In this document: positions 42,172-58,459 of the stretch, in pieces
How the letters are laid out: the number at the start of each line of letters is the position of its first letter
Position numbering within the stretch: position 1 is the first letter of the stretch
Assembly: GCA_034716855.1 (NCBI GenBank)
Contig: JAYEKV010000160.1
Coordinates: 1,926-65,925, forward strand
DNA length: 64,000 bases
Origin: Campylobacterota bacterium
Lineage (GTDB): Bacteria > Campylobacterota > Campylobacteria > Campylobacterales > Arcobacteraceae
Direction of reading: 5' to 3'
Position numbers and translations under genes: made by a program
The notes under the pieces: model-generated
The model's database searches: none
What the model saw: only the letters and a program-made list of their open reading frames with translations
What the model was told of the DNA's origin: nothing

Positions 42172-43833
42172 TTATTGGTCAAAATCTTTATTTCTGAATT
42201 TTTTCCTAATATATAAAAATTCCTGCATATGTTCATTGAAAATATCAACAATCTCTGGATCAAAGTGTTTCCCTTTTTGATCATTTATAAAATTAATAAT
42301 ATCAGGTAAAGGCCAACCTTTTTTATAACTTCTATCTTCCCCTAAAGCATCAAATACATCAGCAAGTGCTGTTATTCTAGAATAGATATGTATCTCTTCC
42401 TCTTTTATTCCTTTTGGATAACCTGAACCATCCCATTTTTCGTGGTGTTCATATGCAATTTGTGAAGCTGTTTTTACTATTTTATTTTTTGAACCATTCA
42501 GCATATGATAACCAACTGTAGTATGTGACTTCATTATCTCAAATTCTACATCAGTAAGTTTTCCAGCTTTATGTAAAATATCATCAGGGATTCCTACTTT
42601 ACCAATATCATGTAAAGCACTAGCACTATATAACAGATCTATATCGTCTTTATCTATACCTAAATGTGTAGCTATAATTTTACAGTACTCAGCTACCCTT
42701 CTTACATGATACCCAGTCTCCTCACTTCTAGTTTCTGCTATCATACCCATTCTTGTAAGGATCTCTTCTTGGGTATTTTTAAGTTCAAGGTTTAGCTCGA
42801 CTATATCAGTAATATCTTTTCTAATAGCTATATATTCAGAAATTTCATTGTTTTTATCCATTATAGGCAGAATTGTAGTATCAACATAATAGAACGAACC
42901 ATCTTTTTTTCTATTCTTTACTTGTCCATTCCATACTTGTTTACTCTTAATAGTGTCCCATAGATTTTCAAATATTTTTTTAGGTAGGTCTTTACTTCTT
43001 ACGATATTGTGAGGTTTACCTATTAACTCTTCCCTTGTGTACTGGGATGCTTTACAAAACTCATCATTCACATAAGTGATATTACCTTTTAAGTCAGTTT
43101 TAGAAACTATATTTGTTATATCGATTGCATCTTTATATTGATGAAAAAGTTTTTCAGTATCTTCTAAAGTACTTTCCGTTTTCATTTGATTTAATATCAA
43201 TCTCATTGAATACATCATAATTACAATTATTGAGAAGATTGTCATTATTGTAGTAATAGCAATAAAATTTTTCTGACTTTTCATATCACTATGAAATTGA
43301 TCAGTAAGATCATCAAAACCTTTTGTTTTCATTTTACTTATCATTTTAAAATACATTCTACTCTTTACAGCAAGTGGAGTAGCATCAACTTTATAGTCTT
43401 TATACATTTTGTATTTTTCTTCATTTGTAGCATTTTTTAATGAAAGCATCTTTGATAATGCATCATCTACAAAAGCTAATGTTGACTTTTTAGATAAACT
43501 TAAAACCAATAATTTACTTTTATCGTCAAAAGTATCTTTAATACTATCTTCTAATTGATCATAATTATATTTTATTATATCTATACTATTTTTCAATTTA
43601 TTAATATTATTATCATATTCATTTCCAAGCATAATATCTCTAGTAGATCTACTTATATAATTCACCTCTTTATTAATAAGTAATATAGCTGTCTTACCCT
43701 TGACAGCTTTATCTTTATAGGCTATAAAAGAATCATCAAGTTTTTTTGCAGTATGAATAATAAACTGTGAAGCTACAAATACAGTCACTACTATAATAGA
43801 GGTTATAATATATATTTTTTGTTTTATGTTCAA
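42172..43833 (-). CDS. Membrane sensor HD-GYP phosphodiesterase with PAS domain
   Basis: 553 aa with two TM segments flanking an extracytoplasmic region, a PAS domain, and an HD-GYP domain (HDIGK, HHEKWDGSGYP). Confidence 0.9.
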   Translation of the reverse strand: MNIKQKIYIITSIIVVTVFVASQFIIHTAKKLDDSFIAYKDKAVKGKTAILLINKEVNYISRSTRDIMLGNEYDNNINKLKNSIDIIKYNYDQLEDSIKDTFDDKSKLLVLSLSKKSTLAFVDDALSKMLSLKNATNEEKYKMYKDYKVDATPLAVKSRMYFKMISKMKTKGFDDLTDQFHSDMKSQKNFIAITTIMTIFSIIVIMMYSMRLILNQMKTESTLEDTEKLFHQYKDAIDITNIVSKTDLKGNITYVNDEFCKASQYTREELIGKPHNIVRSKDLPKKIFENLWDTIKSKQVWNGQVKNRKKDGSFYYVDTTILPIMDKNNEISEYIAIRKDITDIVELNLELKNTQEEILTRMGMIAETRSEETGYHVRRVAEYCKIIATHLGIDKDDIDLLYSASALHDIGKVGIPDDILHKAGKLTDVEFEIMKSHTTVGYHMLNGSKNKIVKTASQIAYEHHEKWDGSGYPKGIKEEEIHIYSRITALADVFDALGEDRSYKKGWPLPDIINFINDQKGKHFDPEIVDIFNEHMQEFLYIRKKFRNKDFDQ

Positions 43834-43955: not shown

Positions 43956-44405
43956 ATGAACTTAAAAGATAAATTAAAAGCTGATTTAAAAGAAGCTATG
44001 AGAGCTAAAGAGATAACAAAAAGAGATTCTATCAGATCTATAAATACAATGATAAAACAAATTGAAGTTGATCAAAGGATAGAACTAAAAGATGAAGATA
44101 TTGTAAAACTTATCCAAAAAGGTATAAAACAAAGAGAAGAAGCTATCTCTCAATACAAAGATGCCAAAAGAGATGATCTTGTTGAAAATGAACAAAATCA
44201 AATAGATATATTTAATCTTTATCTTCCAAAACAATTATCAGATTCAGAACTTGAAGGAATTTTAAAAACAATTATTACAGAAGTTGGTGCAACATCTATG
44301 AAAGATATGGGAAAGATAATGAATCCTGCAAAAGAAAAAATCGGCGGTTCTGCAGATGGTAAGAGGATTAATGAAACAGTAAAAAAACTACTTACTGAAC
44401 AATAA
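43956..44405 (+). CDS. GatB/YqeY domain protein
   Basis: 149 aa with the typical LKADLKEAMRAKE N-terminus and length. Confidence 0.85.
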   Translation: MNLKDKLKADLKEAMRAKEITKRDSIRSINTMIKQIEVDQRIELKDEDIVKLIQKGIKQREEAISQYKDAKRDDLVENEQNQIDIFNLYLPKQLSDSELEGILKTIITEVGATSMKDMGKIMNPAKEKIGGSADGKRINETVKKLLTEQ

Positions 44406-44410
44406 ACTAC

Positions 44411-44442
44411 AAAAGATCTTTTACTTCCCTAAAAGATCTTTT
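44411..44442. terminator. Hairpin formed by two copies of the self-complementary 12-mer AAAAGATCTTTT (likely bidirectional terminator)
   Basis: Copies at 44411-44422 and 44431-44442 are separated by 8 nt and sit between convergent genes. The second copy overlaps the last codons of the minus-strand CDS. Confidence 0.55.
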
Positions 44443-45428
44443 AACTGAACAAAACTATTCAATATAGATGCATTGATATAGTAAACATCCACAGCATCTT
44501 GCAACACAAACACATGTTCTTTCCAATTTACAAGATCATCCATAATAGCAACTATAAACTTTGATGCCATCTCTTTTCTTTCAACTTCGTTAAAATCTGT
44601 TTCTTTCAACAATTCCACAAGCCCATAAAGAACCTTGCTTAGTTCTTCAAACTCCGTAAATGTATATAAAAATCTATTGTATTTTTCAAGAAGATATACA
44701 ATATCATCCAATTTGTCTTCAATCTTACTTTCAAAAAGTAGAAAAGCGATAAGTGCATCTAACTCCTCTTCAAGGTCTATAAGGTCTTCAGTATCAAGTT
44801 CGTTTTCACTATAGCCTTCTAAAAACTCCATAGCAGTAACTTTTTTATGAGAATCATTAAAAGCATCCATTAACTCTTTACTGTGTTCTATACCATTTTT
44901 ATCTTCTTCTTCATCAAAATCCATAAAGTCATCTGAATCATCATCAAAATCCATAAACTCTTCTGAATCATCATCAAAGTCCATAAACTCGTCATCTTGC
45001 TCTTCATTTGAATCTGGCAGTTCTTTTTGCTCTTCTTTTTTATCGTTGAAACCTTCTAAAAAAGTTTCTAATGAGTACTCTATCTCTTTGTTGTCATAAG
45101 GTTGATATATATATTTGTAAACACCAAGTTTTAATGCTTTAAATCTATACTCTTTGTCATTAAGATTTGTAACACCGATAATTTGAGGCAATTCTATATT
45201 CATAATCCTCAATTGTCCTAGCATCTTAAGTGCATCTAACTTACAAGAAGCAATATTTACATATGCAAGATCAATTTTATTATCACTCAATATTTTAACT
45301 GCATCAGTACAGTTTTCAGCTTCAAAATAATTACAATCAATACCAACTTTTTTTAAATACTCCGTGGAATCTTGACGAATTATTTTATTATGCAAAGGAT
45401 TACTATCTACTAATAAAATATTTAACAT
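44421..45428 (-). CDS. Acidic pseudo-receiver protein with triplicated FMDFD motif (possibly ChePep-related)
   Basis: 335 aa. The N-terminal REC-like fold lacks the phospho-acceptor Asp (YVNIAS) and the conserved Lys (YQPY). An acidic repeat linker and a helical C-terminal domain follow. Last gene of the chemosensory operon. Confidence 0.7.
   Translation of the reverse strand: MLNILLVDSNPLHNKIIRQDSTEYLKKVGIDCNYFEAENCTDAVKILSDNKIDLAYVNIASCKLDALKMLGQLRIMNIELPQIIGVTNLNDKEYRFKALKLGVYKYIYQPYDNKEIEYSLETFLEGFNDKKEEQKELPDSNEEQDDEFMDFDDDSEEFMDFDDDSDDFMDFDEEEDKNGIEHSKELMDAFNDSHKKVTAMEFLEGYSENELDTEDLIDLEEELDALIAFLLFESKIEDKLDDIVYLLEKYNRFLYTFTEFEELSKVLYGLVELLKETDFNEVERKEMASKFIVAIMDDLVNWKEHVFVLQDAVDVYYINASILNSFVQLKDLLGK
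44911..45000 (-). repeat. 3 x 30-bp in-frame tandem repeat encoding (D/E)(D/E)FMDFD(D/E)(D/E)S
   Basis: Units at 44911-44940, 44941-44970 and 44971-45000 are near-identical on direct reading. Confidence 0.9.
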
Positions 45429-45431
45429 ATA

Positions 45432-45656
45432 TCAGACAGCCAACTTTAGGTTTTCAAAAAATTTTTCATTAAATTCATCCTCTACAGTTATCTGTTTTTC
45501 AGTAGATAAACAAAATAGTATCTGCATAATTGAAGGGTGTATATCATTTGAAGTTACAACTATTTCATCACAATCTTTCGAAAGCTTCAACAACTCTTCA
45601 TAATTTTCATATTCTAATTTATCCTCTAAAATAAGTACATTTTCTTCTAGCTTCAT
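45432..45656 (-). CDS. Small STAS-like protein (tentative)
   Basis: 74 aa. The hydrophobic/acidic pattern (VLILEDKLEY...DEIVVTSNDIHPSIMQILFCL) resembles short STAS/SpoIIAA-like domains. Embedded in the che operon. Confidence 0.4.
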   Translation of the reverse strand: MKLEENVLILEDKLEYENYEELLKLSKDCDEIVVTSNDIHPSIMQILFCLSTEKQITVEDEFNEKFFENLKLAV

Positions 45657-45670
45657 TATCTATCCTTCTA

Positions 45671-46057
45671 TTATCTTATTCTAAGAACTCTTTTTATGGC
45701 CGTAATAACTTTATTACTTGTAAAGGGCTTAGTTATCCAACCGGTAAGTCCTACTGCTTTACCTTTGGCTTTCATTTCAGGTGAATTTTCAGTAGTCAAT
45801 GCCAATATAGGTTTTATTTTTGTAGATGGAACTGACTTTAAAAACTTTGCAAGATCAAGACCATTCATCTCAGGCATATTTATATCCGTTATACACATAT
45901 CATAAACCATACCATTTTTAACATCCTCTACAAGTTCCAAAGGATTTGTGTAAGATATTCTTTCTATTTCTCCTGCTTTTTCAAGATCCTCCATAGCCAT
46001 CTCTAAAGAAAGATGTACTGTCTGAGAATCATCTACAACGACAACTTTTTTTGCCAT
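45671..46057 (-). CDS. cheY: CheY-like single-domain response regulator
   Basis: 128 aa with canonical DD, the phospho-acceptor in ITDINMP, T in ALTTE and K in TKPF. Confidence 0.85.
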   Translation of the reverse strand: MAKKVVVVDDSQTVHLSLEMAMEDLEKAGEIERISYTNPLELVEDVKNGMVYDMCITDINMPEMNGLDLAKFLKSVPSTKIKPILALTTENSPEMKAKGKAVGLTGWITKPFTSNKVITAIKRVLRIR

Positions 46058-46059
46058 AA

Positions 46060-46815
46060 TTAGTCTCCTTGAATTTTATTTAATATATAAGTACTTAAGA
46101 TATCATAATCTATAGCACCTCTAGCTTTTGGTTCACTTTTACATAAAGGAATACCATCAACAAATGCTTTTGCAAGCTTTATATCTCTTCTTATTGAGGG
46201 TAAAATTTTATCCTTCCCTATACTCAATTCTAACTTGTCCAATATTTCTGTATGTTCTATCATACTTTTATTGTACATTGTAGGTACTACACCTAAAAGT
46301 TCTATATCAGATTTTACACTAATAGAGTTTTTATAAAAAATTCTTAAAAACTGTAAAACACCCACTAAGCTTAAATACTCACACTGCATTGGTACAAGTG
46401 CATAGTCACTTACTTTTAGAGCATTTTTCAAAAGTATATCTGATGTTGGAGGTGTATCTATAATACAAAAATCATAATCTTTTTTCTGTTTTATTTTTCT
46501 AAAAAGCTTTTTAAGTTTAGCTGATTCACTTGCAAGTTCAGATATATCAAAATTCACATGTGCAGGTATAAAATCCAAAGTAGGTACTGCCGTATTTTGA
46601 ACAGCATTTTTATAAAACTTACCCATTTTCAGCATATCATGAATTCCAAGTACAAAATGGTCATTCACACCAAGACCAGTTTGAAGATGTCCTTGTGTAT
46701 CCAAATCAATTAAAAGGACCTCATAACCTTTTGAAGCAATATTAAAAGCAAGGTTTACAGATGTTGTGGTCTTACCAACCCCGCCTTTTCTATTAGTAAC
46801 TAAAATTGTTTTCAA
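46060..46815 (-). CDS. ParA/MinD-family ATPase embedded in the chemosensory operon
   Basis: 251 aa with a deviant Walker A (NRKGGVGKTT). Lies 2 nt from cheY and 12 nt from cheR. No parB nearby. Confidence 0.85.
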   Translation of the reverse strand: MKTILVTNRKGGVGKTTTSVNLAFNIASKGYEVLLIDLDTQGHLQTGLGVNDHFVLGIHDMLKMGKFYKNAVQNTAVPTLDFIPAHVNFDISELASESAKLKKLFRKIKQKKDYDFCIIDTPPTSDILLKNALKVSDYALVPMQCEYLSLVGVLQFLRIFYKNSISVKSDIELLGVVPTMYNKSMIEHTEILDKLELSIGKDKILPSIRRDIKLAKAFVDGIPLCKSEPKARGAIDYDILSTYILNKIQGD

Positions 46816-46827
46816 AAATAACCCCCT

Positions 46828-47646
46828 CTAATACTTTTGGTAAACCAACGATTTACCCATTCTTTGAGTTTTAAAAAGTGAACTTATACGACTCATTTTG
46901 TCTGCATGACCTAAGAAAATATATCCATCATTATTTAAAAGATCATAAAAAGTGACACCAACTTCTCTTCTGCTTTCATCGTCAAAGTATATCAACATAT
47001 TTCTTGAAAAAATTATGTCAAACTTCCCAAGTAGTCTTACTTGTGATTTATCCATAATATTAACTATTTTAAAATTAACTGCACCTTTTATCATTGGTGC
47101 TATCTCAAAACCTTTTTCAGTTATGTTAAAATATTCTTTTAAAAGATGATTTGGTATAAATTGAACACTTCGTTTATTATAAATACCTTTTTTTGCTTTT
47201 TTTATTACCGTACTATCTATATCAATTGCAACAATCTCTATATCTCTTTTATTGATAATTTCAGCTTCGTCCAAAATATTTAAAACCATTGTATAAGGTT
47301 CTTCCCCTGTAGATGAAGGTGCACAAAGTATTCTAATTATATCATCTTTAGCTTTATTTCTATCAATTTGAGGAAGAACTATATCAATTAATGATTCAAA
47401 ATGGTGCTTTTCTCGGTAGAAATAAGTTTCATTCACTGTTATCAAATTAATAACTTCTTGAATTATTGCTTGACTCTTTCCAAACCTAATAGTATGAAAA
47501 AAAGATCTAAAATTTTCATATCCGTGTTCATCCAAATAAGGTGTTAGTTTTTTAATAAAAGAATCCTGTTTTTTATCATCTATAAAAATACCGGTCTTTC
47601 TATAAATATAATCTCGTATCTTTATAAACTCTTTATAATTAATCAT
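46828..47646 (-). CDS. cheR: Chemotaxis protein methyltransferase CheR
   Basis: 272 aa with an N-terminal helical domain and a SAM-binding domain (ILCAPSSTGEEPY, FSRNMLIYF). Confidence 0.9.
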   Translation of the reverse strand: MINYKEFIKIRDYIYRKTGIFIDDKKQDSFIKKLTPYLDEHGYENFRSFFHTIRFGKSQAIIQEVINLITVNETYFYREKHHFESLIDIVLPQIDRNKAKDDIIRILCAPSSTGEEPYTMVLNILDEAEIINKRDIEIVAIDIDSTVIKKAKKGIYNKRSVQFIPNHLLKEYFNITEKGFEIAPMIKGAVNFKIVNIMDKSQVRLLGKFDIIFSRNMLIYFDDESRREVGVTFYDLLNNDGYIFLGHADKMSRISSLFKTQRMGKSLVYQKY

Positions 47647-47649
47647 AAA

Positions 47650-48294
47650 TTAACCTTTGATCTTCTCACATGCCAAGTCTATACCAAAAGCTACATAAGG
47701 CTCTTGTGAAAACTTTTCTTTTAATAATAAAAGTTCTTCTATATCCTCTAACTCACCAATCTCACCTAAGTAATCAACAGCTGTCATAATGACATTAATA
47801 TTCTTTTCATCTTCTATAAGCTCTAAAAGCATATCTCTGGAATCTTCATAATTAACATCACCTAATATATTTACAGCAAATATTCGAATATCTTTATCTT
47901 CATTGTGAAGAAGTTTTGATATAAAAGGTTTTGCAGTTTCACCGTACTCTTGTAGAAAAGTTATCGCTTTATTTCTAAGATATGCATTAGATGATTGTAA
48001 CATTTTGAAAATATTATCATAATCCTCCGCCCTTTTAGGTTTGGTTGTAAAGCTTGAAAAAGCATGATCTATAAGAGGATGATCTATAAGAGGATGATCT
48101 AAATTATCCTGATTTGAATACTTACTTAACAGTATATCTAGAACATAACTTATCTCCTGATGTCCCAAAATATAGTTCAGAGCATCAAATCTTACCTCTT
48201 CGATCTCATCATTATTTTCAAATGCATCTTTAGCATCTAAAAAAGTTCTGAATGTTCTTGTATACTCTTCTACATTGCTCTTAACAAAAGCCAT
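47650..48294 (-). CDS. HEAT-repeat protein
   Basis: 214 aa with three or more HEAT-like repeats (NAYLRNKAITFLQEYG, DKDIRIFAVNILGDV, NVIMTAVDYLGEIG). Located between cheB and cheR. Confidence 0.7.
   Translation of the reverse strand: MAFVKSNVEEYTRTFRTFLDAKDAFENNDEIEEVRFDALNYILGHQEISYVLDILLSKYSNQDNLDHPLIDHPLIDHAFSSFTTKPKRAEDYDNIFKMLQSSNAYLRNKAITFLQEYGETAKPFISKLLHNEDKDIRIFAVNILGDVNYEDSRDMLLELIEDEKNINVIMTAVDYLGEIGELEDIEELLLLKEKFSQEPYVAFGIDLACEKIKG
48064..48101 (-). repeat. 15-bp tandem repeat (about 2.5 copies) encoding DHPLI-DHPLI-DH
   Basis: ATGATCTATAAGAGG is repeated at 48064-48078 and 48079-48093, with a partial third copy. In frame within the HEAT gene. Confidence 0.85.
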
Positions 48295-49358
48295 TATTTA
48301 CCTCCAAACTTCAATATCTCTTTTAATATTTCAGGAAAAGGGAGAACTTTAACTGTTCCACCTTTTTCATATGCTGCCCTTGGCATACCGTAAATTGTCG
48401 CAGTTTCTTTTGATTCTGCAATTGTGTATGCACCTTTATTTTTTAGCTCAACCATACCTAATGCACCGTCATCACCAATACCTGTAAGTTCAATAGCTAA
48501 TATATTCTCACATTTCATTGTTTTTGAAGCAGAAAAAAACATCTCACCTACAGAAGGAGTAAAAAACAATTTTTTAGTATTCGAGCCTAATTTTACACTT
48601 ACAAGTCCTGAAGCCTTTTTTGAAAAGACCATATGGTATCCACCTTTACCTATTATAAGTTTTCCTGCAGTTAAAGGTTCATTGTTCTTGGCTTCTACAA
48701 CATTCAAATTAGAAATATCATTAAGTCTTGTTGCAAACTTCTCAGTAAAAAGCTCCGGCATATGCTGTACCACACAAATAGGATATGGATAATCAGCAGG
48801 CATTGTCGTAGCAATCTTTTCGATTAAACCAGGACCCCCTGTTGAAGATCCTACCAAAACAAACTTTTCAGCTTTTTGCGATGATGAAACAATTTTTTTA
48901 ACTTTCTTTTTTCCAAGTCCCGTTTTCGTTACATTACCCGCTTTTCTAATAACAAGTCTATTTTTTGATATATTAGTTGCTGCTGTTACTTTTCTAATAA
49001 TCTCATCACCTGATTCTTTTACTTTTAAAGTAATAGTCCCAGGCTTCCCTACAAAATCAACCGCACCGTAATCAAGAGCTTCAAATGTAATATCAGCATC
49101 CCCTTGTGTTAGAGAACTTACCATAACAATAGGTGTGGGTTTTTTCTTCATTATCGTTTTTACTGCACTTAAACCATCCATAACCGGCATATTTATATCC
49201 ATAGTTATTGCATCAAAATCTGATTCAAAAGTTTTTTCAACAGCTTCTTGACCGTTTTTTGCATAATCTACCTCAAAAGAGGCAGAAGTAAGCAGCTTGC
49301 CAAGTTCTCTTCTTATAAGTGCAGAATCATCAACGATTAGTATTTTTTTAGCCATCAA
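48294..49358 (-). CDS. cheB: Chemotaxis response regulator protein-glutamate methylesterase CheB
   Basis: 354 aa with a REC domain (DDS, TMDINMP) and a methylesterase domain (GSSTGGP, VVQHMP, GIGDDGA). Confidence 0.9.
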   Translation of the reverse strand: MMAKKILIVDDSALIRRELGKLLTSASFEVDYAKNGQEAVEKTFESDFDAITMDINMPVMDGLSAVKTIMKKKPTPIVMVSSLTQGDADITFEALDYGAVDFVGKPGTITLKVKESGDEIIRKVTAATNISKNRLVIRKAGNVTKTGLGKKKVKKIVSSSQKAEKFVLVGSSTGGPGLIEKIATTMPADYPYPICVVQHMPELFTEKFATRLNDISNLNVVEAKNNEPLTAGKLIIGKGGYHMVFSKKASGLVSVKLGSNTKKLFFTPSVGEMFFSASKTMKCENILAIELTGIGDDGALGMVELKNKGAYTIAESKETATIYGMPRAAYEKGGTVKVLPFPEILKEILKFGGK

Positions 49359-49364
49359 CTCTCT

Positions 49365-50135
49365 TTATATGTGAATATCATTTATAATTGTTGCTATTTT
49401 ACCGTCTTCAAGTTCTATTGCACAATCAAATTGAACGATCTCACCCTCTTCTACTTGACTTAACTTTTGTTTTTGTTCATCTTTTATAGTTATAATATCA
49501 ATAACATCATCCACAAGAATATTAACTGTATCACCTTTACTTGTATTAAATGCAACAATTCTCTGAATTGAGTTTGTCCAAAGGTCAATATCTTTGTTTA
49601 ACATCTCCAGATTATTAATAACTATATCATAATGGTTATGAATCTCCGTTCTTATTATACCTACGGCTTTTTCCTTATCTGTAAGTGCAGTATCTATTAC
49701 AACTCTACCTTTTTGGTGAAGATGTTTATGATGAGGATTGATCTCCCTTTTTATCTTATCCATAAATGTATCATCACATTTTAAACATGTAAGAATATCA
49801 TCAAGCCATTTCCCTAAAGGACAAGCATGTGGGTCAAGTGTTTTTGTGAAATCTTTATCTTGATTTACAGACTCTTCTAACTCTTTTATCCAATCTGCAT
49901 GTCCTTGTTTAATACTTGCGATAAACTCTTGAAGCTCTTCGCTCATCTCTTTATAGTGCATCATCTTTCTTAAACTTACAACAGTACCTATATGACCTCT
50001 TATGTTCATAACACCAAGGATATATTCTGCTACTTCAGGTATCTCCGTTATATCCTTAGGTCTTAGTATCTCTATAATACTCTCAACATCTATTGCAAAA
50101 TATTTGTCTTTAACTACTAATAATAAATACTCCAT
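49365..50135 (-). CDS. CheW-like coupling protein with CZB (chemoreceptor zinc-binding) domain inserted in the CheW fold
   Basis: 256 aa. The N-terminal half of CheW covers residues 1-58 (YFAIDVESIIEI...GVMNIRGHIGTVVSL). The CZB motif HADW-x22-CPLGKW-x25-HKHLH covers residues 79-140. The C-terminal half of CheW covers about residues 190-256. Confidence 0.8.
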   Translation of the reverse strand: MEYLLLVVKDKYFAIDVESIIEILRPKDITEIPEVAEYILGVMNIRGHIGTVVSLRKMMHYKEMSEELQEFIASIKQGHADWIKELEESVNQDKDFTKTLDPHACPLGKWLDDILTCLKCDDTFMDKIKREINPHHKHLHQKGRVVIDTALTDKEKAVGIIRTEIHNHYDIVINNLEMLNKDIDLWTNSIQRIVAFNTSKGDTVNILVDDVIDIITIKDEQKQKLSQVEEGEIVQFDCAIELEDGKIATIINDIHI

Positions 50136-50138
50136 CTC

Positions 50139-52037
50139 TTATCCTTGTTGTAATTCATCTGCTGAAACTGCTAGATCTTCAATATAATCACCCATCTCTG
50201 CTATTGTGTCATTTATAAGTGATGCCGCATGTTTTGATTCTTCAGTATTTTGAAGTGACTGCTGTGCTGCACCTAGTATTTGAGTACTTGCTGTTAATGC
50301 TTCTTCAATAGAACACTTATTTTTTTCGTTTGCTATTTTTAAACCGTTAAAAGCTTCTATTATTTTTTCTACATTTGTTATAGCTCTTGAAGCTTCATCT
50401 TTTAACATATTTACAGTAATAAGCTCTTGTTCTTGATTGTTCATAGTTGTTTCCCAGATAGTATCAATATTTTCTATCTCTTCATCAAGGCTGTCCATAA
50501 CATCCTGAACCTTATCCATATTATTCCCGGCATCCTGTGCAAGACTTCTGATATCTCCACTTACAACGGCAAAACCTTTACCGCTTTCACCTGCACGAGC
50601 TGCTTCTACACTACCGCTTACTGCCAGCATTGTAGTTTGAGCATTTGTATTTACAATTTTTACAAGTGTCTTATTGATCTTATTTGCTTCTTTGTCAACA
50701 AGTCTCATCTGCTTACTTGTAACTTTACCCTCAACAACACTCTCATCTGTAAATTTATGAGTTTCATGGAGTTCTGATTCAACATCTTTTAAATATTTCG
50801 CTGTTTTATCAAGGAAATCAATAACCTCTAAAGTATTATCTAAAAGTTCATTTTGTATATCCAATGAATCTTCTGCAAATTTTTGATTTACACTAGATTC
50901 TTCAGAAGTTATCTGTGCTGCTCCTTCTATTTGTTCTAAAGCAATTACCGACTGCTGCATAGATTTTTGTATCTCTTCAACTACACTTATAAGCTCTTCA
51001 GCCGCCGTAGAAATCTCTTCAGCATCTTTTGAGGCATCTGTTGAGTTCTTTAGCTCTTCTGCAAGTTCAGACAATCCACTTGCCGCTTCTTCTGATTCAT
51101 GAAGTGCATTAACCTGCATCTCTATAGAGTTTGTGATCTGTGCAACGGCACTTGCACTCTCCTCTGCCGCACTTGCAATAGATTCACTACCTTTATTGAA
51201 CTCCTGTGCTTTATCTGCAAGATCTTCAAACTTTTTTACACTTGAAATTATTATATCAATGGCAGTTTGGATACTTTCCATAGAACCTTGAATGTTTTTG
51301 GTAATAGATTCGCCAAGGTCTGAAGAGTTGATAATAAGTGAAGCAACTGTTTGAATATTGTTCTCAACTTTTTCAATAGATTCTTGAATATTGCTAACAA
51401 CTTCTCTTATCACATCTGCATATGTTGTAGATACAGCAGCAAGCTCTCTTGTCTCAGCTGCAACAACTGCAAAACCTTTACCCTGCTCTTTTGCTTTTGC
51501 TGCTTCAATTGCCGCATTTAATGCAAGTAGATTTGTCTGGTCTGCAATCTTTGCGATCAAACCAACTGCCTGACCGATATTGTCACTGGCTTTTTTCATA
51601 TCTGCACTTTTTTCTTGTACATTTGTAACAGTTTGTGAAGCTAGCTGCATTCTATTTGCAGTTTCTATAACTTTCTCGCCACCCTCTTCAACAACAACTT
51701 TTGTTGATGAAGCCAAAGCAACAGATTCATTTAACTCTCTCATTGTTTTTTGAATAGATTGATTTAGCTGAGTAACAACTTTTAAACTTTGCTCAGATGC
51801 ACCTGCGTTTTGTTCACTGGCAGCTGCTATTTGTTCCATAGCACTTTTTAACTCTTCAATAGCACTAACGCTCTCTTGAGCTTTTCTTAAAATTTCTGTT
51901 GATACACCGTCTATAGCTTCAGATATCTGCTGTTGCTTTGCCAATGTTCTGTTTCTTTTTTTATTTACCACATCACTTCTTTTTGATTTTACTCCACCAA
52001 TATTAGATGATGCGGTATTATGTTCTACGAAAGCCAT
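50139..52037 (-). CDS. Soluble methyl-accepting chemotaxis protein with two tandem signalling domains
   Basis: 632 aa with no TM segment. Two MCP hairpin-tip motifs are present (...LLALNAAIEAAKAKEQGKGFAVVAAETRELA and ...MLAVSGSVEAARAGESGKGFAVVSGDIRSLA). Confidence 0.85.
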   Translation of the reverse strand: MAFVEHNTASSNIGGVKSKRSDVVNKKRNRTLAKQQQISEAIDGVSTEILRKAQESVSAIEELKSAMEQIAAASEQNAGASEQSLKVVTQLNQSIQKTMRELNESVALASSTKVVVEEGGEKVIETANRMQLASQTVTNVQEKSADMKKASDNIGQAVGLIAKIADQTNLLALNAAIEAAKAKEQGKGFAVVAAETRELAAVSTTYADVIREVVSNIQESIEKVENNIQTVASLIINSSDLGESITKNIQGSMESIQTAIDIIISSVKKFEDLADKAQEFNKGSESIASAAEESASAVAQITNSIEMQVNALHESEEAASGLSELAEELKNSTDASKDAEEISTAAEELISVVEEIQKSMQQSVIALEQIEGAAQITSEESSVNQKFAEDSLDIQNELLDNTLEVIDFLDKTAKYLKDVESELHETHKFTDESVVEGKVTSKQMRLVDKEANKINKTLVKIVNTNAQTTMLAVSGSVEAARAGESGKGFAVVSGDIRSLAQDAGNNMDKVQDVMDSLDEEIENIDTIWETTMNNQEQELITVNMLKDEASRAITNVEKIIEAFNGLKIANEKNKCSIEEALTASTQILGAAQQSLQNTEESKHAASLINDTIAEMGDYIEDLAVSADELQQG

Positions 52038-54793
52038 TACTTTTTCTCCTTTTGATTTATAAGTTTAACTGGATTAATTACAAATAAAACTTCACCGTTT
52101 CCTAAAAGTGAAGTACCTGAAATGAACGGATGATCTTTAAAGTTTGATGATAGAGGTTTTTGAATTATATCTAACTGATTTACAAACTCATCAACCACAT
52201 AACCAAATTTATTTTCTGATGTTTCAATAATCAATAACGATATATTCTCTTTTTGATCAACATCTTTTGAAAGAAGATTATAATTAAATATTAACGGTAT
52301 AAGGTTACCTCTTAGTTTCAACATTGGTTTTTTATTTACATACTCTATCTCTTCTTTTGGTATTTGAACAGTTTCACTTATTGTATCCATTGCAAGAGCA
52401 TAATTAACATCTCCTAGTTTCACATGGAATACATTTGTAAGCGCAACGCTCATTGGAAGCTCCAGTACCAATGTAGTACCCACACCAACTTCACTTTTTA
52501 AAGATATCTTACCTCCAACATCATCGATACTTTGTCTAACTACATCCATACCTACACCACGACCTGAAAGCTCACTTATTTTTTCCATAGTCGATACACC
52601 TGGATGAAATACTAGCATAAGCTTCTCTTCCCGACTCATCTCATCAAGCTGATCTGGATCTACCATCTTTTTATCAAGAGCCTTATGAACAACCTTATCT
52701 ACATCTATACCTCTACCGTCATCCTCTATAGTGATATATACTTTATCCCCTAATGATTGTGCAGAAATAGAGATATTACCTTCAGGGTCTTTACCGTTCT
52801 CTTCTCTCTCTTCTGGCGTTTCTATACCATGATCTAATGAGTTTCTAATTATATGAATAAGCGGATCTGCTAATTTTTCAATAATTGTTTTGTCAAGTTT
52901 TGTTTCTCCACCCTCTTCATGATATTTAATCTTTTTATTTAAAGATTTAGAGATATCTCTTACAAGTTTAGGGTATCTATCAAAAATAAAAGATACAGAA
53001 AGTAGTCTCATCTGCATAACTTTTTCTTGAAGTAAAGTTGTAACTCTATTGATCTCATCATATCTGGTCTGAAGATCTCTCTTACTTGACTCTACATTAG
53101 AGATATCCAATCCATCAGCTATATATGGTAAAGCATTTTTAATAACAAGCATCTCTCCAACTATATCCATCATAGAGTCTATATCAGATAAGTCAATTTT
53201 AACAGTTTTTGCCACTTGTTTTGCAACTTTTTGATTCTTTTCTTTTTTTGACTCTTTTTTAGTCTTTTTAGTAACTTCATTTTTATTCTGTGAAATCTCT
53301 GATTCCGACTTTCGTTCAATTACTTTCTCTGGTTCAGGTGCATCGTTCTCAACTTCTATTTTTTCTTCTACAATATCTTTACAACCTATAGAATCAAACA
53401 TATTCTCAATTACTCTTAATAGATCATCCTTATCATTACAATTTTCTATACCAAAATGATCACCTAAAGATTTTTCTAATTTTAATAAAACAGATTTAAT
53501 TTGAGTATGTACATTTTCATTGTCAATGTTATTTAAAATATAATTTTGTTCGGATAAAATATCTGCTATTGTTTTTTTATCATCTTCATCTAGTGAAACA
53601 ACTTCTGATATAACTTCTTCAGATATCTCTTCTTTTTGTATATTATCTATTTCAATTGTATCTTCTTCTGTTTCTTGTTCAGGTTCTTCTAAAGATTGAA
53701 TCTCTTCTTCTATCTCATCTTCTATTATATTCTCATCATTAATTAATTCAAGAATATAATTTAATGCTTTTGGGATAAGTTTTTCATCAAGATTACAATC
53801 CTCTATCAAATATCTTAATCTTCCAAATAAAAATCCTTGTAAAGAGTTTGGATTTAAGATATCCACTACAGCTTTTAAATTTGCTACAATATTTTTATAA
53901 TCAAACTCAGCAGGAAGATTTTTAATATCATCTAAAAAATCTATAATAGAATCATTTGTTTGTATCTCAAGTTCACAATTTAAAAGTGATTTAACTGATA
54001 ATGGATACACACTTACATCTTCTAAAAAGTTATAAAAAGCATCTTCGAGTAATTCTTGATTTGAGTATACTATAGCTGTGATTCTTGAAGACCATTGAAG
54101 AGGATCCTCTTTTATCTGCTCTAATGTAGCTGAAACTTCAGTATGTATAGAGATTATATTTTCATTTTCAAGTAAATAAAGGGCATAAAAAGGATCATTA
54201 CCCATTTGAAGTGTATCTTCATCAAGATCAATATCTATAAAATAATAATTCATGTTTGTAAAAGATTCTTGAGTTATCTCCTGTGGCTCGTAAGGTATAG
54301 TATTTAACTCAATAGAAGAAAAGTCATTTTTAAACATATTTGCAAAAAAAGGAACTTCATCATCAATAATATTTAACTCAGTATCAATACCCTCTATAAC
54401 TTCCTCTTTTAAATCAAGTATCTCTTCTCTTAATTTTTTAAATTCTAATATTTTATCTTCACCTACAGAAGCTACCTCTCCGCTCTCTTCTGTGGCATCT
54501 ACCAGCTCAGTAACTTCATCAAACATATCATATAATGCATCTAATAAAGTATCACTATATGTTATTTTATCGTTACGGTAAGCATCAAGAAGATCTTCAG
54601 CTATATGGGTAACCTCTTTAACTGCATCAAAGCCTGAAAGACCCGAACTACCTTTTAGTGTATGAGCAGCACGAAAGAGTGCATTTACAGTATCTTTATC
54701 AGACCCTTCCAAGCTTGAAAGATTTTTATCTAGATAAAGAAGATTTTCTCTTGCTTCTACTAAAAACTGTTCTAATATTGGATTCATCTTCAC
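52037..54793 (-). CDS. cheA: Chemotaxis histidine kinase CheA with long non-canonical P1-P3 linker
   Basis: 918 aa with P1 Hpt (AAHTLKGSSGLSG), a roughly 400-aa acidic region, P3/P4 (HIIRNSLDHGIE, GRGVGMDVV) and a P5 CheW-like domain. Confidence 0.9.
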   Translation of the reverse strand: MKMNPILEQFLVEARENLLYLDKNLSSLEGSDKDTVNALFRAAHTLKGSSGLSGFDAVKEVTHIAEDLLDAYRNDKITYSDTLLDALYDMFDEVTELVDATEESGEVASVGEDKILEFKKLREEILDLKEEVIEGIDTELNIIDDEVPFFANMFKNDFSSIELNTIPYEPQEITQESFTNMNYYFIDIDLDEDTLQMGNDPFYALYLLENENIISIHTEVSATLEQIKEDPLQWSSRITAIVYSNQELLEDAFYNFLEDVSVYPLSVKSLLNCELEIQTNDSIIDFLDDIKNLPAEFDYKNIVANLKAVVDILNPNSLQGFLFGRLRYLIEDCNLDEKLIPKALNYILELINDENIIEDEIEEEIQSLEEPEQETEEDTIEIDNIQKEEISEEVISEVVSLDEDDKKTIADILSEQNYILNNIDNENVHTQIKSVLLKLEKSLGDHFGIENCNDKDDLLRVIENMFDSIGCKDIVEEKIEVENDAPEPEKVIERKSESEISQNKNEVTKKTKKESKKEKNQKVAKQVAKTVKIDLSDIDSMMDIVGEMLVIKNALPYIADGLDISNVESSKRDLQTRYDEINRVTTLLQEKVMQMRLLSVSFIFDRYPKLVRDISKSLNKKIKYHEEGGETKLDKTIIEKLADPLIHIIRNSLDHGIETPEEREENGKDPEGNISISAQSLGDKVYITIEDDGRGIDVDKVVHKALDKKMVDPDQLDEMSREEKLMLVFHPGVSTMEKISELSGRGVGMDVVRQSIDDVGGKISLKSEVGVGTTLVLELPMSVALTNVFHVKLGDVNYALAMDTISETVQIPKEEIEYVNKKPMLKLRGNLIPLIFNYNLLSKDVDQKENISLLIIETSENKFGYVVDEFVNQLDIIQKPLSSNFKDHPFISGTSLLGNGEVLFVINPVKLINQKEKK

Positions 54794-54811
54794 CTCCTCT
54801 TCAATATTTTG

Positions 54812-55180
54812 TTAACTACACTTTATAGTTAATAATTTAGCAACCCTTAATAGGTCATCACTGCTTACTGGCTTAACCTCGTAAAAATTTGCACCTGCTT
54901 CATATGCTATAGTTCTATCACTTTTATCTGATTCAGTAGAGATCATAACTATAGAAGCATCATAGCCTGAATTTTCTCTATATCTTCGAACAAATGAATA
55001 TCCGTCTAAAATAGGCATATTTATATCAACTAAAAATAGATCATAACTGTTTTCACTTACTTTTTCCAGTGCTTCCATACCATTTTCTGCTTCATCTATT
55101 TCATAGCCTGCACCTTGAAGTATCTGCTTATGATAAAGTCTTACCGTTACTGAATCATCTACAATCAAAATTTTCATCAT
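54812..55180 (-). CDS. cheY: CheY-like single-domain response regulator (first gene of the operon)
   Basis: 122 aa with canonical DD, LVDINMP, ST and KP residues. A strong RBS (AGGAGGGAAG) lies immediately upstream. Confidence 0.85.
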   Translation of the reverse strand: MMKILIVDDSVTVRLYHKQILQGAGYEIDEAENGMEALEKVSENSYDLFLVDINMPILDGYSFVRRYRENSGYDASIVMISTESDKSDRTIAYEAGANFYEVKPVSSDDLLRVAKLLTIKCS

Positions 55181-55307
55181 CTTCCCTCCTAAATATAGCT
55201 AATAGAAGATTTTAATTATTAAATTTAGTTTAATAAAGAAAACTATACTTAAATCAAAACCAATATGCAATAATAGTATATTTTAGATTAAAATAGTGTC
55301 AAAGTTA

Positions 55308-55397: not shown

Positions 55398-55780
55398 ATG
55401 AACAACAATTTACATGAAAGATTGAAAAATCTTAATGTTTTATTTGTGGATGATGATATATATGTTATAGACATCATGAAAGAGATACTCCCTTATTTAT
55501 TTAATAGGAGTTTTTATGCAGCAGATGGAGTAGAAGGTTTATCTATTTTTAAAAACAACCATATAGATATTATACTTACAGATCTTCACATGCCAAATAT
55601 GAACGGTATAAAGATGACTCAAGAGATAAAAACAATAAACAAAAACATAAAAACTATATAATAAGTGCCAGCAGTGAAAATAAAACATTAAATAAAATAG
55701 AAAAAGTATTTGATGTTTCTATAACAAAACCAATAAATTCAACAGACCTATACAAAGCATTAAAAAAAGTGATGGGATAA
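55398..55780 (+). pseudogene. Single-domain response regulator interrupted by a frameshift at about 55653-55664
   Basis: Frame 1 gives 87 aa of a canonical REC (DDD, TDLHMP) ending at TAA 55659-55661. The frame starting at 55658 continues IISASSENKTLNKIEKVFDVSITKPINSTDLYKALKKVMG and ends in TAATG, overlapping the next gene start. Confidence 0.75.
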
Positions 55781-56898
55781 TGGAAACGATAAAAGAAACA
55801 ACTGTACTGTATGTAGAAGATGATAAAAAGATATTAAAAAGTTTTTTTGACATTAGTGAAAGTATATTTAAAAAAACACATCTTGCACATAACGGTAAAG
55901 AGGGACTTGATTTATATATTAAATATAAAGAGAGTATCGATGTAGTCATTACAGACTTAAATATGCCTATAATGGATGGTATAGAGATGATTAAACAAAT
56001 AAGAGACATTAACTTTGAAATACCTATTATTATTACAAGTGCTTACAATGATCATGTTACTTTAAATAAAGTCATCAATCTAAATGTTGATGGATTCATC
56101 AATAAACCTTTTTCTTATAAGGAACTATTATCAAGTGTAAATAAAGTATTAAAGCCGATCTTTTATAAAAAAGAATTAGAAGAAAAAAACATTTTATTAT
56201 ATCAACAGTCAAAATTTGCAGCTATGGGGGAGATGATAGGTAATATTGCCCACCAGTGGAGACAACCTTTAAATTCAATAGGTGCTACTATGATGAGGCT
56301 TGAATTTCAAACAAAAAATAATGATTTAAGCAAAAAAGCTGTAGAAGATACAATAGAAAAAACAAATAAAATATTAAATCACATGTCTAAAACGATAGAT
56401 GACTTTAGAAACTTTTTCTCACCCCATAAAGAAAAATCAATATTTAAATTTAAAGAGATCATTAATGATATTAGTGAACTTTTCATGCCCCAATTAACTT
56501 CAGACAATATATCTCTAGAGATAATATGTAAAAAAGATATAGAGATCTATGGATATCCAAATGAACTCAAACAAGTTTTACTTAATATCTTAAGCAATTC
56601 AAAAGATGCAATAATAGCATCAAGTAAAAATAACGGTAAAATAGATATATCAATAAAACAGTGTACAAATGATGTTATCATATCTATCTCAGATAACGGT
56701 GATGGAATCAAGCAAGAGATACTTGAAAAGATATTTGATCCATATTTTACAACAAAGTTTCAGGCACAAGGTACGGGTATTGGTTTATATATGTCAAAGC
56801 TTATCATTGAAAATAATATGCAAGGGACTATAAATGTCAAAAATACTAAATACGGTGCAAAGTTCACTATAAAAATACCTATATCTTTAGAAGATTAA
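55780..56898 (+). CDS. Hybrid response regulator-histidine kinase (REC + HisKA-like + HATPase)
   Basis: 372 aa with an N-terminal canonical REC (EDD, ITDLNMP, NKPF), the H-box NIAHQWRQPLN and HATPase motifs (DNGDGI, GTGIGL). Confidence 0.85.
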   Translation: METIKETTVLYVEDDKKILKSFFDISESIFKKTHLAHNGKEGLDLYIKYKESIDVVITDLNMPIMDGIEMIKQIRDINFEIPIIITSAYNDHVTLNKVINLNVDGFINKPFSYKELLSSVNKVLKPIFYKKELEEKNILLYQQSKFAAMGEMIGNIAHQWRQPLNSIGATMMRLEFQTKNNDLSKKAVEDTIEKTNKILNHMSKTIDDFRNFFSPHKEKSIFKFKEIINDISELFMPQLTSDNISLEIICKKDIEIYGYPNELKQVLLNILSNSKDAIIASSKNNGKIDISIKQCTNDVIISISDNGDGIKQEILEKIFDPYFTTKFQAQGTGIGLYMSKLIIENNMQGTINVKNTKYGAKFTIKIPISLED

Positions 56899-57885: not shown

Positions 57886-57901
57886 ACAAAAGGAGAAAAA
57901 A

Positions 57902-58459
57902 ATGAAAAAATTTGTTTATAGATTTATGATAAGTACTGCATTAGTTGCAGCTGGTTCTGTATCACTCTTAGGTGATGATGATATTTCAGAACTAACCAAT
58001 GAAGTACAGGTACAAAAAGCTCAAAATTTAGCAGAAAATACACAAGAGGTTACTGAAGCTAAAATAAATTTAGCTGATGCACAAGAAGCCTATGATAATG
58101 ATCCTGAAAATGAGGAACTTAAAGAGGCACTTGATAATGCAATACAACAGTTGGCAGATATGACTGATGAATCTGTAAACTCAATAAATGATATGAGAGA
58201 GTCAGGCATGGGATGGGGTGAGATTGCACATGAACTTGGTGTTCATCCAAGTGTATTAGGTCTTGGTCATACTAATAATATAAAAAATCAAGAAAGAATG
58301 AGAGAAACAAAATCTTTTAAAACTTCAAATCAAAATCGATCAGAAAATAGCAGTAATAAACTAAAAGGTAAAAGTTCTGATTCTAAAGATAAAGGAAATT
58401 CAGGCAATAAAGATAAAGGCAACTCTAGTAATAAGGGTAACGGGAAAGATAAAAACTAA
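57902..58459 (+). CDS. Secreted hypothetical protein with Lys/Asn/Ser/Gly-rich repeat tail
   Basis: Start placed at ATG 57902 after AGGAG. Signal peptide MKKFVYRFMISTALVAAGSVSLLG. The C-terminus carries KDKGNSGN-type repeats. Confidence 0.55.
   Translation: MKKFVYRFMISTALVAAGSVSLLGDDDISELTNEVQVQKAQNLAENTQEVTEAKINLADAQEAYDNDPENEELKEALDNAIQQLADMTDESVNSINDMRESGMGWGEIAHELGVHPSVLGLGHTNNIKNQERMRETKSFKTSNQNRSENSSNKLKGKSSDSKDKGNSGNKDKGNSSNKGNGKDKN

Follow-up and report, generated by a model that had tools for sequence, protein, structure and literature searches.

How does a chemosensory pathway take in a signal when none of its proteins enters the membrane and its receptor carries no sensor domain? 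The question is raised by an operon of eleven genes on a 64,000-nucleotide stretch of contig JAYEKV010000160.1 (assembly GCA_034716855.1; the whole of this 64-kb stretch is called the window below), from a Campylobacterota bacterium of the family Arcobacteraceae. A first-pass annotation, made from the sequence alone, had read the operon as a cytoplasmic array system with an unprecedented combination of parts, in which the one obvious sensor module, a CZB domain, interrupts the coupling protein CheW. We find that the CZB domain sits inside the fold of one CheW domain, with its 3His/1Cys site kept, and that the operon is very probably derived from the F9 class, which is defined by the receptor DosM and CheW3, a coupling protein of three concatenated CheW domains, builds a two-layer cytoplasmic array stabilised by DosM, and has no known function (PMC7534058, PMC9321776). 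The explanation that we favour, with moderate confidence, is an F9-class cytoplasmic pathway of an Arcobacteraceae-type variant that has lost CheW3 and has this protein, here called CheW(CZB), as its only coupling protein.

Eleven minus-strand open reading frames (ORFs) fill positions 44421-55180 in the order CheY1-CheA-DosM-CheW(CZB)-CheB-HEAT-CheR-ParA-CheY2-p74-p335, at distances from the 5' to the 3' end of the operon of 18, -1, 3, 6, -1, 3, 12, 2, 14 and 3 nt (Table 1). The tight packing described earlier is thus reproduced to the nucleotide, and the labels then given to the products (CheY, CheA, methyl-accepting chemotaxis protein (MCP), CheW with CZB, CheB, HEAT, CheR, ParA-like, second CheY) agree with our domain calls, for which Pfam and NCBIfam profiles were used with the cut-offs of each model. 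Strand switches flank the operon on both sides: the YqeY gene at 43956-44405 (+) is convergent with it, and the genes from 55398 (+) onward are divergent. A purine-rich run resembling a ribosome-binding site precedes every gene except the last (10 of 11). All eleven have dN/dS of 0.02-0.14 against a 96% relative (locus L004), indicating that they are real and under purifying selection. In a Kyte-Doolittle hydropathy scan, used in place of a dedicated transmembrane predictor, the highest 19-residue mean across the eleven proteins is 1.40, below the usual threshold of ~1.6, so that none has a segment resembling a transmembrane helix. A cytoplasmic array, as proposed from the start, is the natural prediction from such a membrane-free set of genes.

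The receptor cognate for F9 has two tandem signalling domains of ~44 heptads (PMC9321776), and 98% of DosM homologues are without sensor domains (PMC9321776, PMC7534058); only two DosM proteins are noted as carrying CZB (PMC9321776 S6 Table). The window receptor has two MCPsignal stretches by Pfam and no other domain, and its hydropathy maximum is 0.98. Its two hairpin tips lie 300 residues apart, which by simple arithmetic gives roughly 145-155 residues, or ~21-22 heptads, per helical arm, and its 632 aa, including a ~35-aa basic N-terminal tail, come near the length of two ~44-heptad signalling domains in tandem. The N-terminal and C-terminal halves align with each other (blastp, 3.7e-13) as an internal repeat, with methylation-like motifs at aa 71-80 and 288-297. 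The sensorless double-hairpin receptor of the DosM type that had been suspected is therefore borne out. Full-length homologues of 627-650 aa adjoin CheW3.

The window has a DosM-CheW-CheB-(non-che gene)-CheR block, and CheY and CheA belong to this cluster too. The gene orders recorded in S6 Table of PMC9321776 are DosMW3B.RYA.YM for Vibrio cholerae and DosMW3B.RY.YAW1 for Sulfurimonas gotlandica GD1 and Sulfuricurvum sp. 17-40-25, and most published F9 orders have a non-che gene, written '.', between B and R (PMC9321776 S6 Table). In the window this position is held by the HEAT gene. CheA comprises an Hpt domain (6-94), a ~430-aa P2/linker, and dimerisation (529-595), HATPase (643-781) and P5/CheW-like (789-915) domains; the long P2-P3 region matches that noted for F9 CheA, and phmmer scores of 577-617 bits are reached by its orthologues in F9 clusters of the Sulfurimonas type. 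Together with CheB and CheR, it recovers counterparts in DosM+CheW3 clusters at high phmmer scores. The operon resembles V. cholerae cluster I (DosM VC1403, CheW3 VC1402, CheA1, CheB1, CheR1, CheY) in its sensorless tandem-domain soluble receptor, its receptor-CheW-CheB-(non-che gene)-CheR block, its stand-alone CheYs and its lack of a membrane component, and the double-baseplate cytoplasmic array of that cluster is predicted here from the genes alone. It differs in that a single CheW with an internal CZB replaces CheW3, CheY and CheA lie upstream of DosM, no MCP gene flanks it, and ParA, p74 and a gene for a response regulator (RR) with an added helical domain have joined the set.

One genome per GTDB species was searched by pattern scan, which yielded 18 Campylobacterota loci (numbered with L below), which were annotated by phmmer and jackhmmer with the window proteins and show two arrangements, type A (Arcobacteraceae-type) and type B (Sulfurimonas-type). 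Type A has the order of the window: all eleven genes stand in L004 and L005, L008 keeps the order through p74 and has a p335-like gene upstream of CheY1, L007 is without HEAT, L009 is without HEAT and ParA, and both of these genes are also absent from contigs of the Arcobacter sp. FWKO B type (L001, L002). A distant type-A-like cluster (L035, DosM 42% identical) reads Y-RR471-CheA-DosM-CheW(260 aa, CZB-like)-CheB-CheR-77aa-Y. Type B is found in Sulfurimonas metagenome-assembled genomes (MAGs; L003, L010-L013, L015-L021) in the order DosM-CheW3-CheB-HEAT-CheR-CheY-130aa-CheY-CheA-CheW(CZB)-~90aa-ParA-(receiver-HisKA-HATPase)-RR~440-68aa, which as far as the single CheW is the published order DosMW3B.RY.YAW1. 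L030 has the type B order with a plain 140-aa CheW in the CheW(CZB) slot, and L029, which has no single CheW and two soluble MCP-CZB genes nearby, reads CheA-374aa-DosM-CheW3-CheB-HEAT-CheR-75aa-ParA. Full-length HEAT orthologues lie between CheB and CheR in both types and in L029 and L030, a CheY1 orthologue precedes CheA in all related clusters, and a CheY2 orthologue comes after CheR in type B. The conserved 130-aa gene between the two CheYs of type B (L010 6443-6835), which is the '.' between the two Ys in DosMW3B.RY.YAW1, matches no Pfam family; it is absent from the window and unrelated to the C-terminal domain of p335.

Every window family recurs in DosM+CheW3 clusters, and CheW3 is the one missing element: the gene after DosM, where L003, L010, L029 and L030 have CheW3, encodes a 256-aa single CheW with CZB. 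Orthologues of all window families (DosM, CheB, HEAT, CheR, the CheYs, CheA, CheW(CZB), p74, ParA and the RR family) are shared with the F9 clusters of S. gotlandica GD1 and Sulfuricurvum and with L003 and L010-L021. The Sulfurimonas-type clusters differ from the window in having CheW3 next to DosM, CheW(CZB) after CheA, the 130-aa gene, usually a receiver-histidine kinase hybrid, and an intact receiver in RR~440, which is degenerate in p335. The published 'W1' of S. gotlandica GD1 was recorded without mention of CZB (PMC9321776). A second F9-like cluster of Caldicellulosiruptor, DosMW1BA.RY.M (PMC9321776 S6 Table), is like the window in combining DosM with a single-domain CheW and unlike it in gene order and phylum. 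The main text of PMC9321776 credits Arcobacter with F7 only; that survey required DosM and CheW3 together, and type A clusters consequently fall outside it.

What had seemed an unprecedented combination is therefore very probably the Campylobacterota form of F9, and the loci compared above bear on the idea that the operon is a novel chimera, a new self-contained pathway joining a Vibrio-type DosM to a ParA/STAS module of the kind found in Rhodobacter sphaeroides cheOp3. Both kinds of part do stand in one operon, and PpfA and TlpT offer a precedent, but ParA, the p74 family, HEAT and the RR with its C-terminal domain are regular companions of Campylobacterota DosM+CheW3 clusters, ParA is common in che operons (homologues in those of 37% of 206 species; PMC2829493), and the STAS assignment is non-significant. 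Nothing else in the operon resembles cheOp3: there is no split CheA3/CheA4 kinase, and the two-tip DosM is unlike the single-domain 36H TlpT. We regard such a chimera as highly improbable.

The insertion of CZB within CheW is apparent when the protein is spliced in silico. As it stands, CheW(CZB) matches the Pfam CheW profile with 69.9 bits (cut-off 23.5) over positions 1-70 of 138 and the CZB profile (PF13682) with 38.1 bits (cut-off 29.4); removal of aa 66-186 restores a single CheW match over positions 1-129 of 138, at 83.4 bits against 69.9 unspliced, just as expected of the interrupted CheW of the first-pass annotation. In the plain 140-aa CheW of L030, residues 1-68 and 67-136 align to residues 1-68 and 184-257, respectively, of CheW(CZB) from type B; read as sequence, this is a clean insertion footprint. 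An AlphaFold2 (AF2) model, with a predicted local distance difference test score (pLDDT) of 81, places a helical bundle at aa 64-189 between two beta halves, and the best Foldseek matches of this model are CheW proteins, aligned over 258-263 columns with CheWs of 146-156 residues (prob 0.99, at a non-significant E of about 0.1). His79, Cys105, His136 and His140, as well as Leu107, Gly108 and Trp110, are invariant in 17 aligned sequences down to 28% identity, and so is the motif DPHxCxLGxW. Identity is 72-96% to close relatives in uncultured Campylobacterota and Arcobacteraceae MAGs and 80% to the cultured Arcobacter sp. FWKO B; dN/dS is 0.035 against L004 and 0.066 against L005, among the lowest in the operon and, against L005, the lowest of the eleven. 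Searches with CheW(CZB) and CheA of the operon as queries (phmmer) revealed no additional CheW-like ORF in the window.

Neither CheW-CZB nor ParA in a che operon is new in itself: both are on record (PMC8262984, PMC10653840; PMC2829493). The CheW-CZB architecture makes up 1.4% of CZB proteins, is commonest in Clostridia (PMC8262984), and is listed among known CheW architectures (PMC10653840). CheW-CZB proteins, TlpD of Helicobacter pylori and DgcZ of Escherichia coli are like the window protein in being cytosolic and in having a CZB domain with 3His/1Cys and CxLGxW; the window protein differs from them by insertion in place of terminal fusion, by its F9 partner, and by the residue after the cysteine, to which we return. 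A literature search found no experimental characterisation of any CheW-CZB protein, no mention of an insertion topology of CZB within CheW, and no mention of a link between CZB and F9.

A profile made from the CheW(CZB) alignment and run against 1.84 billion representative proteins retrieved 91 of them at E<1e-30. The top matches are mostly proteins of 236-296 aa aligned end to end, and 29 of the best 150, counted from the table of matches, are multi-CheW proteins of 600-770 aa, in 28 of which the query maps to about residues 170-465 (residues 354-598 in the remaining one, P0245). Pfam finds four CheW stretches, and CZB at about aa 250-330, in each of the four examined (P0166, P0171, P0174, P0187); judged by this domain order, these multi-CheW proteins are CheW3 with CZB inserted in the second domain. 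One such gene (L032 10001-12055) lies in a cluster that reads dCache-MCP-CheW3(CZB)-CheB-x-HEAT-CheR-CheY-CheA-CheV, where it comes after a transmembrane dCache-HAMP MCP rather than DosM, the block CheB-x-HEAT-CheR-CheY-CheA being otherwise F9-like. A further CheW(CZB) homologue with a single CheW domain, P0163, is an orphan amid housekeeping genes, which shows that members of the family also occur outside che clusters. Loci L022-L028, returned by the genome scan, proved to be Firmicutes CheV (CheW plus receiver) matching only the N-terminal CheW half, and were rejected. What is new, then, is the CheW3-less arrangement with CheW(CZB) as sole adaptor, the CZB domain as an insertion within the CheW fold, and the recurrence of this insertion inside CheW3.

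This distribution might be taken to mean that the insertion is structural, with dimers of helical bundles linking CheWs non-covalently in replacement of the concatenation in CheW3, and with zinc needed as a cofactor of folding. The lineage in which CheW3 was lost did retain CheW(CZB) and shifted it beside DosM, and the same insertion is found in the middle domain of many CheW3 proteins; in favour of dimeric linkage, too, the CZB domain of DgcZ reportedly crystallises as a dimeric bundle (PDB 3T9O, an entry cited in PMC8262984). However, Sulfurimonas-type clusters keep both CheW3 and CheW(CZB), which are thus not simply interchangeable, a plain CheW fills the CheW(CZB) slot in L030, and the strict conservation of the cysteine motif would be expected of a reactive site no less than of a structural one. 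A structural role of this kind seems to us unlikely.

CZB is a sensor of hypochlorous acid (HOCl) or zinc (PMC6715182, PMC8262984), and it is tempting to see in the CZB-in-CheW a main input of the pathway, a view to which we give somewhat less than an even chance. The bolder version of it, in which the coupling protein rather than the receptor is the primary sensor, CZB is a Zn-thiolate switch for oxidant or zinc at the baseplate, CheW3 was thereby made dispensable, and baseplate sensing is a general and overlooked F9 input, we put forward as a speculation that is rather unlikely to hold in full. There is a precedent for sensing through CheW in CheWS of Treponema denticola, a CheW with a CheR-like sensor of S-adenosylmethionine (PMC10653840), which likewise has its sensor on the coupling protein at the baseplate, bypassing receptors; it differs in being a C-terminal fusion, in the fold of its sensor, and in serving a membrane array of class F2.

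Alternatively, array input may come from further soluble receptors encoded elsewhere, MCPs of matching length that bear PAS, CZB or haem, with DosM a scaffold, CZB a modulator at most, and the pathway not self-contained. DosM of V. cholerae shares trimers with other soluble receptors encoded elsewhere, filling only part of each trimer, and other cytoplasmic receptors are needed (PMC9321776, PMC7534058). Sensor genes adjoin related clusters: in L029 they encode a PAS protein and two MCP-CZBs, and in L003 and L030 a gene for a PAS protein precedes DosM. The window, which is only part of a genome, holds no other MCP. Against this stand the constraint on CheW(CZB), which is among the strongest in the operon, the invariance of its zinc site over 28-96% identity, and its occupation of the CheW3 position by DosM, which together argue for a central rather than a marginal role. 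Input from receptors encoded elsewhere, which we rate as quite possible though not probable, is in any case compatible with the explanation that we favour and does not exclude it. In the two contigs of the FWKO B type, a 149-aa Nitro_FeMo-Co protein (NifX/NifB-C-like) lies between CheW(CZB) and CheB (L001 3979-4428, L002 4221-4670); it is possibly another cofactor-based input.

We propose that the F9 variant with CheW(CZB) as its only coupling protein would work as follows. As in V. cholerae cluster I, two baseplates, here of CheA P5 and CheW(CZB), would be spanned by DosM dimers. The CZB bundle would stand out from the loop that joins the two beta-barrel halves of CheW and, like that of TlpD and DgcZ, act as a Zn-thiolate switch (for oxidant, HOCl or Zn), changing either the control of CheA or the assembly of CheW-CheW and CheW-P5 rings. 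CheR and CheB would adapt the system via Glu/Gln pairs on DosM, and CheA would phosphorylate CheY1, CheY2 and CheB. The ParA-type ATPase and p74, perhaps with the basic N-terminus of DosM, may position and partition the array on the nucleoid in the manner of PpfA, and the p335 family, with its RR and helical domain, would provide the best candidate for a pathway-specific effector; in this sublineage its receiver is without the acceptor Asp.

Several points weigh against this account. CheW3 being absent, membership of F9 is formally incomplete, and the class was read from gene content rather than from class-specific hidden Markov models; that a single CheW could build an F9 baseplate is a supposition of ours. 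The N-terminal half of CheW is poorly modelled by AF2 (aa 27-60, with a pLDDT of <50 at aa 27-41). The residue after the cysteine is Pro, whereas Arg is typical of the CZB domains of HOCl-sensing chemoreceptors, a difference that marks the CheW-CZB subgroup (PMC8262984); a sensing of zinc or oxidant by the CZB-in-CheW is a prediction. The real input may come from further soluble MCPs whose genes lie beyond the 64 kb of the window. The roles given to ParA, p74, the DosM N-terminus and p335 are suggested by gene neighbourhood and analogy, and transcription of the eleven genes as one unit is suggested by their spacing. The best sigma-70-like site upstream of CheY1 is suggestive at most, promoter-like sites in the upstream intergenic region being no more numerous than in shuffles, and a scan for terminators found none.

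The positioning part of the proposal draws on three features. The ATPase has a deviant Walker A motif (KGGVGKT, aa 10-16), its orthologues occur in DosM+CheW3 clusters, and no ParB-like ORF is found in the operon by Pfam scan. R. sphaeroides cheOp3, in which PpfA acts in positioning via TlpT (PMC6829392), is alike in its ParB-less ParA-type ATPase, its operon for a cytoplasmic cluster and the distinct N-terminus of its receptor; apart from the differences in kinase and receptor given above, it has no DosM, HEAT or CZB, and the likeness at the level of sequence extends to the ParA superfamily. The second feature is the basic N-terminal motif of DosM: each full-length homologue listed, whether of type A or of type B, carries (K/R)3xRT(L/M)AKQQQISE, the exception (L009) being a 5'-truncated ORF. 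By analogy with TlpT/PpfA and FrzCD, this could be a candidate peptide for contact with ParA or with the nucleoid or DNA. DosM of the FWKO B type has it too, on 9-kb contigs (L001, L002) with no ParA gene within the cluster.

Third, a p74-family gene lies directly upstream of, and overlaps, parA in related clusters, and jackhmmer ties p74 to ORFs of 75-90 aa before ParA in 14 loci; the constancy of this pairing suggests p74 as a partner of ParA. The label STAS-like that p74 had been given fares less well. The window protein has no match to the STAS or STAS_2 profiles (3 of 20 relatives match STAS_2, at E=0.03), hhalign against SpoIIAA and RsbV, both of which Pfam confirms as STAS, gives a non-significant E=0.15, and a profile search of the PDB returns nothing. 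By template-modelling (TM) score, the best Foldseek match of the AF2 model, whose alignment is shallow (three proteins from the homologue search), is the STAS protein MlaB (TM 0.62, prob 0.77, E 0.39), and generic alpha/beta fragments score similarly. A STAS-like gene that had been suggested for cheOp3 was likewise unconfirmed in PMC6829392 and PMC2829493. 'STAS-like' is thus, weakly, a lead and not a finding.

The last gene product, p335, was rightly described as an acidic pseudo-receiver: Asn58 stands for the phospho-acceptor Asp, Gln109 for the Lys, and Asp8-Ser9 for Asp-Asp. This degenerate form is shared only by the window and its closest relative, L004; the receiver residues are intact in L007, type B and several Arcobacteraceae-type p335 homologues. 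p335 is of the family of the RR~440 protein of type B, and its C-terminal domain, conserved there and in the 374/390-aa protein of L029, has no Pfam or PDB family, the only matches being low-complexity ones to designed helical bundles. Between the receiver and this domain lies an acidic and aromatic triple repeat, with related motifs in L029 (FDFIDFDEDEE), at the C-terminus of the type B proteins (DDIFDF) and in L006, L008 and L009 (ELEFF, DLEFF and DIEFF); ELEFF, too, is C-terminal. The EFMDF of p335 fits the x-aromatic-x-x-aromatic pattern of the pentapeptides that tether CheR and CheB, yet is internal. One idea, and only an idea, is that EFMDF could be a CheR tether and the DDIFDF of type B a C-terminal CheY-binding peptide like that of CheZ.

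A conserved, cluster-specific RR with a novel C-terminal domain also invites the thought that the output is not motility and passes instead through this RR-plus-helical-domain protein or through neighbouring genes of two-component or c-di-GMP type. Even in V. cholerae F9 has no known function, and deletion of cheA1 gave no chemotaxis phenotype there (PMC7534058); a receiver-histidine kinase hybrid is encoded inside type B clusters and divergently beside the window operon, and a PAS/HD-domain protein lies ~0.6 kb past the downstream end. On the other hand, flagella are present in 97% of the species that bear F9 (PMC9321776), the operon encodes two ordinary receivers of the CheY type, and the effector candidate of the window is without a phospho-acceptor. 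We find a non-motility output conceivable and, on balance, somewhat unlikely; it concerns output only, and is compatible with the F9 variant that we favour.

The genes around the operon in the window are chromosomal housekeeping genes, among which some others deserve mention. The divergent side begins at 55398-55780 (+) with a stand-alone receiver gene that a frameshift near 55655-55660, within an A-rich run, breaks in two: part 1 (55398-55661) holds DDD and the acceptor Asp, and part 2 (55658-55780) holds IISASSENK…ITKPI and has a stop that runs into the start of the gene behind it. Either the gene is a pseudogene or the break is an error of MAG assembly. The next gene (55780-56898, +) encodes a receiver-HisKA-HATPase hybrid kinase of 372 aa; a similar kinase of about 500-512 aa is encoded inside most Sulfurimonas-type clusters (e.g. 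L010 11744-13282), and a 383-aa protein divergent from the cluster in L004 is, on its receiver match alone, a plausible counterpart. The divergent hybrid kinase may be part of the same signalling unit. Directly downstream of it, at 56917-58459 (+) taken together, follow a gene for a TPR-repeat protein of 322 aa (with a weak C-terminal OmpA match at E=0.03) and, overlapping its end, a 202-aa ORF with no significant family (best HTH_38, 19.5 bits, cut-off 27). On the other side, beyond the YqeY gene, the PAS and HD/HD_5 protein has 553 aa (42172-43833, -), and its HD_5 match would fit a candidate c-di-GMP phosphodiesterase of the HD-GYP type. At ~5 kb from the operon there is a gene for a FIST-FIST_C-HATPase histidine kinase (37632-39620, -), and a kinase of the same architecture is encoded ~3 kb from the cluster in L035 (1232-3229), which could be coincidence or a conserved neighbour.

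Table 1. Positions in the window of the operon's genes, of the domains and motifs discussed, and of the candidate promoter (all on the minus strand).
Feature	Position	Strand	Basis or remarks
Sigma-70-like site TTGACA-16-TATACT	55275..55302	-	Consensus scan, 11/12 positions; ~95 nt before CheY1
CheY1, stand-alone receiver, 122 aa	54812..55180	-	Pfam Response_reg 5.1e-26; DD, Asp52, Thr, Lys intact
CheA, 918 aa, GTG start	52037..54793	-	Pfam Hpt, H-kinase_dim, HATPase_c, CheW; NCBIfam CheA models 368 and 321 bits
DosM-type soluble receptor, 632 aa	50139..52037	-	Two tandem signalling hairpins; without sensor domain or transmembrane segment
DosM conserved basic N-terminal motif (…KSKRSDVVNKKRNRTLAKQQQISE…), aa 15-37	51927..51995	-	Homologue comparison
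DosM hairpin tip 1, EAAKAKEQGKGFAVV, aa 178-192	51462..51506	-	Motif search
DosM hairpin tip 2, EAARAGESGKGFAVV, aa 478-492	50562..50606	-	Motif search
CheW(CZB), 256 aa	49365..50135	-	Pfam CheW and CZB; only coupling protein of the operon
CZB insertion, about aa 66-186	49578..49940	-	Motif DPHACPLGKW; ligands His79, Cys105, His136, His140
CheB methylesterase with receiver, 354 aa	48294..49358	-	Pfam CheB_methylest 1.3e-49; NCBIfam PRK00742 336 bits (cut-off 293)
HEAT-repeat protein, 214 aa	47650..48294	-	Pfam HEAT_2 6.6e-14
CheR methyltransferase, 272 aa	46828..47646	-	Pfam CheR 5.7e-52, CheR_N 1.2e-7
ParA/MinD-type ATPase, 251 aa	46060..46815	-	Pfam AAA_31 3.4e-40, CbiA, ParA, MipZ; NCBIfam ParA_partition
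CheY2, stand-alone receiver, 128 aa	45671..46057	-	Pfam Response_reg 5.2e-18; all catalytic residues present
p74, 74 aa	45432..45656	-	No Pfam/NCBIfam family; beta-beta-alpha-beta-alpha-beta-alpha (AF2, pLDDT 91)
p335 (335 aa), degenerate receiver domain	45054..45428	-	Pfam Response_reg 3.8e-8, 33.9 bits (cut-off 30.2)
p335 acidic/aromatic triple repeat, DDEFMDFDDDSEEFMDFDDDSDDFMDFD, aa 145-172	44913..44996	-	Translation; DDxxEFMDFD x3
p335 C-terminal domain, ~145 aa	44424..44858	-	Sequence suggests helical; conserved in RR~440 of type B and in the 374/390-aa protein of L029

Both the stimulus and the output of the double-layer cytoplasmic arrays of F9 are unknown even in V. cholerae. A redox or zinc module inside the CheW fold, in single CheWs and in CheW3 alike, points, as a hypothesis, to the baseplate, over the receptor, as their site of input. 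With one CheW and one sensorless receptor, the window variant is the simplest such system, and the related, shorter cluster of the cultured Arcobacter sp. FWKO B (with no HEAT or ParA on the recovered contigs) makes experiments feasible. Surveys that require DosM together with CheW3 miss CheW3-less DosM clusters of this kind. The HEAT protein, the p74 family and the RR with its new C-terminal domain are conserved companions of these systems, and are candidates for the positioning of the array and for its output.

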